From positions 1 to 25,479 of the IMG/VR virus record IMGVR_UViG_2531839473_000011: a stretch of DNA of 25,479 nucleotides. The stretch is one strand, 5' to 3'. The translations under genes were made by a program, and so were the position numbers. This document shows, one piece after another, positions 15,897 to 16,199 of this stretch (positions within the stretch are counted from its first letter, which is position 1; every line of letters begins with the position of its first letter). The notes under the pieces are model-generated. The model did no database searches. It saw only the letters and a list, made by a program, of their open reading frames with translations, and was not told the DNA's origin. Origin of the DNA: a virus (Duplodnaviria > Heunggongvirae > Uroviricota > Caudoviricetes).

Positions 15897-16199
15897 ATGA
15901 CACACATGATCTTTCGTCATGGCGACATGAAGAAATGGAAAGGCGTTGGATACGACTTTGAAATCGTGAAAGCCGAAGAGCTTCAGGAATATCTGGATGC
16001 TGGCTGGTTTGCACATCCTGATGATCTTCTGAAGGATGTTGCAGAACCAGAACCAGAACCAGAACCAGAACCAGAACCAGAACCAGAACCAGAACCAGAA
16101 CCAGAACCAGAACCAGAGCCAGAGCAAGAAGAAAAACAGCGTAAAAAGCCTGGTCGAAAACCTAAGGCGGCAGCAGATGAACCTGACAACGAAGGGTGA
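15897..16199 (+). CDS. Small hypothetical protein containing an (EP)13 repeat
   Basis: ATG at 15897 preceded by GGAGA. Product has a short N-terminal domain, thirteen consecutive Glu-Pro dipeptides, and a basic tail ([11 protein letters not shown]). Its end overlaps the gp4 start. The same frame is open from 15849. Confidence 0.5.
16044..16127. repeat. Hexanucleotide microsatellite: (GAACCA)12 perfect, followed by GAGCCA and GAGCAA
   Basis: Read directly from the sequence. It keeps all three + frames and the complementary frame open; the minus-strand complement is the source of the 232-aa ORF with a WFWF... run. Confidence 0.95.

Follow-up and report, generated by a model that had tools for sequence, protein, structure and literature searches.

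Why does the late operon of a P22-like phage carry a long, pure hexanucleotide microsatellite between two structural genes, and does the length of this repeat matter? The repeat occurs in IMG/VR record IMGVR_UViG_2531839473_000011, of which a 25.5-kb stretch (positions 1 to 25,479, referred to here as the window) was analyzed. The window belongs to a P22-like (Lederbergvirus-type) phage and covers its replication, lysis, and late region, and the repeat lies in a small open reading frame (ORF) between the coat gene and gene 4, which encodes the head-tail adaptor gp4 (Table 1). The repeat was read letter by letter and then examined with Tandem Repeats Finder and a list of ORFs with their translations. 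Twelve exact GAACCA units (16044-16115) are followed by one GAGCCA (16116-16121) and one GAGCAA (16122-16127), and the tract that they encode in the 100-amino-acid (aa) product is (Glu-Pro)13-Glu-Gln, or (EP)13-EQ. Tandem Repeats Finder reported an array at 16042-16123 with a period of 6, 13.7 copies, 98% matches, and a score of 157. Since the second-best tandem array in the window scored 59, the GAACCA array is the sole microsatellite of note and is not due to chance. An earlier reading made without database searches (the sequence-only reading) had described a GAACCA array in an ORF of about 100 aa between coat and gp4, and both the letters and the repeat finder agree with it.

In-frame change of repeat length among relatives

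Fifteen related loci were read directly as DNA, from 6 phage isolates, 7 E. coli chromosomes, and 2 IMG/VR contigs. All of them keep the frame, with 2 to 33 units. The phage isolates carry 2 (Bas106), 5 (Louie and HZ41), 6 (Dewey), and 8 (IME10 and APC_JM3.2) units, and the seven chromosomes carry 9, 13, 14, 17, 20, 29, and 33. The region is present in 217 of 5426 complete E. coli genomes. For the 59 full-length E. coli genome matches listed, 6-33 units were inferred from the span; in 54 of these spans the difference from the window is an exact multiple of 6 bp, and in the other 5 it is ±1, a shift that in both cases read was the difference between T5 and T6 in the run of the coat terminator. 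At the protein level, the best 120 clusters range from 74 to 98 aa, in steps of 2 aa almost throughout.

The unit is GAGCCA in nearly all relatives, compared to GAACCA in the window. The GAACCA allele was also found in two IMG/VR contigs, L020 and L021, and an exact-match search for it in genome_contigs gave no match. L021 differs from window positions 13479-16435 by 1 mismatch in 2951 nt and by one 6-nt unit fewer (13 vs 14). The flanks of L020 are identical over 547 nt to the left and 500 nt to the right, and it has 11 units compared to 14. Copy number changes faster than point substitutions accumulate. This is the signature of slipped-strand mispairing, which is therefore the likely mechanism of length change. 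Interrupted alleles (EPESEPESEP, EP..EQEQEQ, DP, and ET) are single-base variants of one unit. The sequence-only reading had expected slippage in 6-bp steps with the frame kept, and had named identical copy number in all relatives as a sign against it. Copy number is not identical among the relatives, and both the directly read loci and the genome spans bear out the expectation.

The locus has the properties of an in-frame coding variable-number tandem repeat (VNTR), namely a 6-bp unit, polymorphism in close relatives, and a preserved frame. In-frame 6-bp VNTRs in prophage genes are used for multiple-locus VNTR analysis (MLVA) typing of Salmonella and E. coli, and the GAACCA array resembles these in unit size, in frame, and in hypervariability in near-identical strains. 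A phase-variable on/off contingency locus was also considered and was rejected because the unit is 6 bp, the frame is kept in every allele seen, and no promoter-like site was found in 15500-16700. No new mechanism is involved: the repeat is an ordinary coding microsatellite, kept in frame within a linker that tolerates change. What is new here is that the linker is a true hypervariable VNTR of 2-33 units that changes between near-identical genomes. It offers a hypervariable marker to separate near-identical P22-like prophages, which about 4% of complete E. coli genomes carry.

The small ORF, its family, and its predicted N-terminal domain

The small ORF matched phrog_1175 over the full length of the profile (E 8.4e-32, protein residues 1-98 against positions 1-72 of 72). 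The homologues in P22 (ORF69, E 4.5e-31), CUS-3, and Proteus phage Brookers all matched the same profile (E 7e-15 to 5e-31). In the 186-aa product of epsilon34 gene 6 (phrog_3769), the N- and C-termini matched phrog_1175, with a WDGH insertion between them. For the small ORF, 289 protein clusters were retrieved, every one of which is named "hypothetical protein". The order of coat, hairpin, small ORF, and overlapping gene 4 was found in every genome examined, namely P22, Sf6, HK620, epsilon34, CUS-3, Brookers, a Pectobacterium prophage, and a metagenome contig. The small ORF overlaps gene 4 by 23 nt in the window and in Brookers, 17 nt in P22 and epsilon34, 20 nt in CUS-3, 26 nt in Sf6 and HK620, and 14-17 nt in loci L023 and L024. 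Alignments gave a family plan of an N-terminal domain (N-domain) of about 46 aa, a variable middle, a basic stretch, and a short acidic end. The N-domain motif across the family is M..Y+.G...W.G....V...E...yL..GW..HP..L, and both this motif (..GW..HP..) and the basic C-terminal tail are present in the window ORF.

Against the Pectobacterium and metagenome orthologues, the proportion of nonsynonymous differences (pN) in the N-domain was 0.14-0.32 and that of synonymous differences (pS) was 0.57-0.90, with synonymous sites near saturation. Of the 13 N-domain sites that vary among close relatives, 8 are third codon positions and none is a second position. This pattern indicates that the N-domain is under purifying selection. 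Together with the full-length profile match, it argues that the small ORF is a real gene and that the repeat is coding, as the sequence-only reading had proposed. ATG 15897 is the preferred start, as it has a GGAG upstream and aligns with the P22 start, and the same GGAG-spacer-ATG layout occurs in the small genes of P22 and CUS-3. The GTG at 15849 (116 aa, used in some JGI calls) was rejected as a start because that frame would cross the terminator hairpin and has no Shine-Dalgarno (SD) sequence.

P22 ORF69, epsilon34 gene 6, and CUS-3 ECRS218_0017 share the slot of the window gene, after the coat hairpin and overlapping the start of gene 4, as well as the arrangement of N-domain, variable middle, and basic tail. 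Sf6 gene 6 and HK620 hkbT (phrog_3251) occupy the same slot. A long, pure hexanucleotide microsatellite as the linker was found only in an E. coli-centered subgroup of the family. At the position of the repeat, P22 has PVEADDVKP and CUS-3 has essentially nothing, whereas epsilon34 has a WDGH domain of about 100 aa (PF25311, E 2e-40; also phrog_3392). In epsilon34 gene 6 (157-717 of locus L017), this domain stands between the N-domain and the basic tail. The linkers of divergent orthologues are acidic and Pro-rich (PAEPEPEPTQ, SSPDPEPEPEKA, and IIEPEAEPEPV). In one 93-aa E. coli protein (P0021), 17 residues at the N-domain's end are duplicated in tandem, a second type of length change in the gene. 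Four further proteins, P0121 (153 aa), P0122 (71 aa), P0124, and P0126, have the family N-domain, after which, or a few repeat units further on, the sequence is unrelated; these are likely frameshifts, truncated contigs, or chimeric assemblies.

The existence of the ORF69/gene 6 family, its length variability, and its dispensability in P22 have been published. Gene 6 homologues vary in length and their role is unknown (PMC2629481), and the P22 gene in this slot is non-essential in the laboratory (PMC2629481, citing Eppler et al. 1991). A literature search on ORF69, hkbT, WDGH and its function, and phage hexanucleotide VNTRs found only this epsilon34 paper. The GenBank record of APC_JM3.2 flags a repeat_region at the locus, and no other description of the locus was found. 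Pfam and NCBIfam searches with the small ORF gave only sub-threshold, compositional matches (PARP, TonB_N, DnaX, and ClfB), and PADLOC anti-phage defense profiles did not match the window ORF, P22 ORF69, or epsilon34 gp6.

The slot of the small ORF between coat and gp4 is equivalent to that of gpFI, the DNA packaging chaperone of lambda, whose gene stands between those for the major capsid protein and for head completion in the order E - FI - FII. Like the window protein, gpFI is small and has two ends joined by an acidic linker. Homology to gpFI was rejected (hhalign probability 0.3%), and the likeness is positional and architectural only. Lambda gpFI is dispensable under some conditions. A 2012 study by Popovic and colleagues reportedly deals with this protein.

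Structure prediction of the N-domain, which the sequence-only reading had suggested, gave a divided result. The AlphaFold2 (AF2) model of the full-length protein predicted strands at residues 2-8 and 19-25 and helices at 26-34 and 41-48, with a mean per-residue confidence score (pLDDT) of 85, 62, 92, and 90 in the successive ten-residue blocks of residues 1-40. The linker and tail (residues 50-100) were modeled as an unfolded, low-confidence coil with a pLDDT of about 50. The N-domain was confidently modeled in the context of the whole protein and not as an isolated domain, where the pLDDT was 56.

An exhaustive phmmer search with the N-domain retrieved the orthologues and homing endonucleases of the GIY-YIG (plus NUMOD3) or HNH type, each with 3-6 matched stretches. 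The stretches belong to a tandem module of about 35 aa with the consensus K.I...ELQ.YLD.GW..G, for which no covering Pfam or NCBIfam model was found. Six GIY-YIG/HNH-like proteins (P0129, P0132, P0134, P0136, P0137, and P0144) carry 4-6 tandem copies of it, in the form ..WINnG...K.I...ELQ.YLD.GW..G+. Comparison of 9 N-domains with 28 nuclease modules by hhalign gave a probability of 95.6% and an E value of 1e-8 over the second strand and the helix, and in the reverse search the nucleases (phrog_314 and phrog_655) matched phrog_1175 with E values of 2e-14 to 1e-6. The profile match thus joins the C-terminal module of phage homing endonucleases to the second strand and helix of the N-domain, although the small ORF has a single copy, lacks a nuclease domain, and has a longer hairpin. 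The small ORF itself was rejected as a homing endonuclease because the 100-aa protein has no GIY-YIG or HNH match and shares the accessory repeat module only.

This link between the N-domain and a homing-endonuclease repeat module is a new lead. The nuclease-associated module may bind DNA, as its position beside NUMOD3 would imply. Because the regions C-terminal to the catalytic domain in such nucleases are modular DNA-binding regions (I-TevI, I-HmuI), the N-domain is, by analogy, probably a DNA-contacting module. The similarity to the nuclease module together with the basic tail suggests DNA binding. The tail reads KKPGRKPKA in the window, KPRKGRKPKA in P22, KKPGPKPKA in epsilon34, KRGRKA in Sf6, and KRRGRPPKA in the orthologue P0133, whose RRGRPPK scored 14 bits against the AT_hook cut-off of 17.4 and is therefore sub-threshold. 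It is possible, though we would lean against it, that the small ORF encodes a small DNA-binding accessory protein of late infection. The similarity provides a first testable idea, DNA binding, for a gene that is present in every P22-like phage examined.

Competing explanations of the repeat

Because the repeat contains no stop codon in any frame, two other frames stay open through it, an antisense (WF)n ORF and an (NQ)n upstream extension of gp4 (Table 1). The sequence-only reading had taken both to be by-products of the repeat, and this is supported; for the gp4 extension, the frame is closed in P22 and Brookers. The annotation of the locus has suffered repeatedly. In the deposited genomes of IME10 (L003 1037-1642), Dewey (L002 1037-1630), and Louie (L004 1035-1622), gp4 runs through the repeat in the SQ frame and is 30-35 residues too long. 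The Dewey and Louie records call a different ORF of 45 aa that overlaps the end of the coat gene, and the IME10 record calls no small ORF. In APC_JM3.2 (L001 1140-1640), gp4 is labeled "recombinase RmuC". In E. coli ECONIH6 (L008 498-743), the 29-unit allele was flagged by PGAP as an incomplete pseudogene ("missing C-terminus"), and the locus translates to an intact 130-aa ORF with a normal tail. That the repeat drives this recurrent misannotation is an explanation offered here for the first time.

Three records thus imply that gp4 begins with an Asn-Gln (or Ser-Gln) extension encoded by the repeat, and ATG 16036 does open the gp4 frame through the repeat. This is extremely improbable, since a stop closes the gp4 frame 1 codon upstream of the ATG in P22 and Brookers, and in Sf6, CUS-3, and epsilon34, where the peptide is short and unrelated, the frame closes 12-23 codons upstream. 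In addition, gp4 aligns with P22 gp4 and PF11650 from residue 1-2, a conserved SD precedes 16177, and the extension is not conserved, as close relatives read SQ where the window reads NQ. The repeat could instead be neutral and non-coding, within an ORF that is not translated. The calls in the Dewey, Louie, and IME10 records would fit, as would the lack of direct evidence of translation, but a frame kept at 15 of 15 directly read loci over 2-33 units, a coding-type substitution pattern, a full-length PHROG match, and a conserved SD and ATG leave this reading almost no chance. We consider both readings to be effectively excluded.

The explanation that we consider probable is that the repeat is an in-frame VNTR in the variable linker of a real late-operon protein and that its length polymorphism is neutral or nearly so. 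The family tolerates almost any linker, from none (CUS-3) or a few residues (P22) to a 100-aa WDGH domain (epsilon34). In the E. coli-centered subgroup, identical Glu-Pro codon pairs would have become adjacent, after which slipped-strand mispairing would add and remove 6-bp units and produce a ladder of in-frame alleles, from 2 to 33 units, with little or no effect. The window allele would represent amplification of a synonymous variant unit, GAACCA, in place of the usual GAGCCA. The protein may serve late infection as a DNA-binding accessory factor that is non-essential, with a possible part in head completion or packaging, and translation of the small ORF may help to bring ribosomes to gene 4. 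This explanation marks the ORF69/gene 6 linker as freely extensible, and the view of phage assembly is unchanged unless linker length has a phenotype.

The EP tract itself may act as an extended spacer of the polyproline II type, in which 26-28 residues would measure about 8-9 nm (at about 0.31 nm per residue) and the 33-unit allele, from the same geometry, about 20 nm. Glu-Pro stretches of TonB form polyproline II rods, and the stretches of Glu-Pro and of Lys-Pro in this protein can reportedly make a hairpin (PMC10771500). The proline-rich region of TonB consists of (Glu-Pro)n followed by (Lys-Pro)m, and the small ORF likewise has an EP tract followed by a Lys/Pro-rich basic stretch. In contrast to TonB, the small ORF lacks a membrane anchor and the TonB C-domain, encodes a cytoplasmic phage protein, and has only KKPGRKPK as its basic part. 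By analogy, a TonB-like rigid EP spacer is a reasonable suggestion. Homology to TonB was rejected, as PF16031 TonB_N gave a compositional match of 17.7 bits against a cut-off of 33 and the NCBIfam TonB models fell far below their cut-offs.

Another possible explanation is that linker length is selected, setting the reach from the N-domain to the tail or an acidic-basic fold-back, and that the microsatellite is kept as a contingency device. The faster change in copy number than in point substitutions, the wide range of 2-33 units, the purity of long arrays (which implies recent expansion), the conserved acidic, Pro-rich composition in divergent orthologues, and the hairpin reported for TonB (PMC10771500) are all consistent with such a tunable spacer. 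However, pure long arrays are equally expected under neutral slippage, the family tolerates no linker, a few residues, or a whole domain, the gene is dispensable in P22, and no phenotype has been tied to length. A selected spacer is therefore unlikely. Alternatively, the main role of the small ORF could be that of a leader that delivers ribosomes past the coat terminator and couples translation to gene 4, with repeat length modulating the dosage of gp4 and the peptide being of minor importance. In favor of this, all relatives keep the 14-26 nt overlap with gene 4, the conserved SD TAAGGCGG lies within the small ORF, and a terminator-like hairpin precedes that ORF. Against it, an N-domain that is under purifying selection and recognizable in E. 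coli, P22, Proteus, and Pectobacterium phages would be superfluous in a simple leader; gp4 has a good SD of its own, and the regional RNA fold (z = -1.8) gives no indication of a sequestered SD. We consider a leader as the main role very unlikely, and coupling to gene 4 may come on top of another role instead of replacing it. It is also quite unlikely that the microsatellite is a maintained tuning knob, in which changes in the length of a rigid acidic rod, placed between a DNA-binding module of the homing-endonuclease type and a basic tail of the minor-groove type, would rapidly reset the activity of a packaging or head-completion accessory protein, or translational coupling would reset the dose of the gp4 adaptor. 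If true, a structural operon of a phage would contain a contingency locus that works by length.

Several points weigh against the explanation of a nearly neutral VNTR in a translated, DNA-binding protein. The neutrality of length is assumed, and common alleles cluster at short lengths, a distribution that could reflect either mutational bias or selection against long tracts. For the longest alleles, the unit counts are only as reliable as the assemblies. In the sources searched, direct evidence of translation (peptides or ribosome footprints) was not found for the window ORF or any family member. The N-domain-only AF2 model was too poor for a fold search, and Foldseek returned nothing from the PDB at E <= 0.001 and only unnamed small phage proteins from BFVD. 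A PDB sequence search with the N-domain profile gave chance matches only, to de novo TIM barrels and ETS fragments. The inference of DNA binding rests on a 19-column segment of an uncharacterized nuclease-associated repeat. An AT-hook (PF02178) was rejected for the tail, which reads P-G-R-K-P without a GRP core and has no Pfam match. Lastly, K90-A91 at the end of the tail are co-constrained because the gene 4 SD overlaps these codons, and conservation of the K-A codons is thus partly explained by that SD and not by protein function.

Neighboring genes and signals

The early and lysis genes of the window encode an O-like initiator, a DnaB-like helicase, a Q-like antiterminator, a holin, and an endolysin. 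The late genes encode the small and large terminase, portal, scaffold, coat, small ORF, gp4, gp10, a knobbed tail needle, ejection proteins, and the tailspike. The features around the repeat are given in Table 1.

Table 1. Positions of the repeat, the small ORF, and adjoining features in the window.
Feature	Position	Strand	Basis or remark
Coat (major capsid) gene, 431 aa, upstream neighbor	14557..15852	+	phrog_283/phrog_22632 head protein, E 1e-112 to 9e-153
Spurious antisense ORF, 232 aa, (WF)n	15648..16346	-	ORF list; overlaps three well-supported + strand genes and stays open through the repeat; no search for family evidence was made
Terminator-like hairpin AGAGGGAGC-TTCG-GCTCCCTTT (15858-15879) and T run	15858..15885	+	Terminator scan; just past the coat stop
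GGAG SD of the small ORF	15887..15890	+	Read from the sequence; 6 nt before ATG 15897
Small ORF, 100 aa, P22 ORF69 / epsilon34 gene 6 family (phrog_1175)	15897..16199	+	Profile match, synteny, selection
N-domain, residues 1-46, predicted beta-hairpin and helix, motif V..//..HP	15897..16034	+	AF2, hhalign
Spurious upstream extension of gp4, MLQ-(NQ)n-...	16036..16176	+	ORF list; open to ATG 16036
Hexanucleotide VNTR, variable linker	16044..16127	+	12 GAACCA + GAGCCA + GAGCAA = (EP)13-EQ
Basic tail, residues 80-91, AT-hook-like, non-canonical	16134..16169	+	Conserved in relatives
AAGGCGG SD of gene 4, within small-ORF K-A-A codons 90-92	16164..16170	+	6 nt before the gp4 ATG
Gene 4 (head-tail adaptor, 166 aa), true start 16177	16177..16677	+	PF11650 P22_Tail-4, E 1e-58, residues 2-160; phrog_637

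The hairpin past the coat gene has annotated equivalents in P22 (as a stem_loop), Sf6 ("t coat"), and HK620 ("tGP5"). It is kept in all close relatives, where the sole variation is the length of the T run (T5 or T6). In a tblastn comparison, window gp4 aligned with P22 gp4 from residue 1, and its ATG lies 23 nt before the stop of the small ORF. The sequence TAAGGCGG stands 6 nt ahead of the gp4 ATG in the window, P22, epsilon34, CUS-3, and the close relatives, and 5 nt ahead in Sf6 and HK620; Brookers has the variant AAGGTGG. The SD, (T)AAGGCGG, is kept in P22, Sf6, HK620, epsilon34, and CUS-3 even though their small ORFs are only 24-37% identical to the window protein. Some translational coupling between the small ORF and gene 4 is plausible. 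Folding of the RNA over 15840-16240 did not reach significance (z = -1.8) and gave no sign of a sequestered SD; therefore, a role for RNA structure is not proposed. A promoter scan found no promoter-like site in 15500-16700, and the small ORF is therefore not a self-contained moron.

Three further observations were made elsewhere in the window. The gap between the last ejection-protein gene (21398-23395) and the tailspike gene (from 23560) is only about 165 bp, so that the immI/sieA-type insert found at this site in P22 is missing from this phage. Short imperfect tandem repeats with periods of 7, 14, 8, and 12 occur at 1421-1476 and 1667-1691 inside the O-like initiator gene (1000-1821), where the iteron-bearing origins of lambdoid phages usually lie. 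At 282 aa and with a C-terminal knob, the tail needle (18095-18943; phrog_1030) has the long form of Sf6-type phages and not the 233-aa form of P22 gp26.

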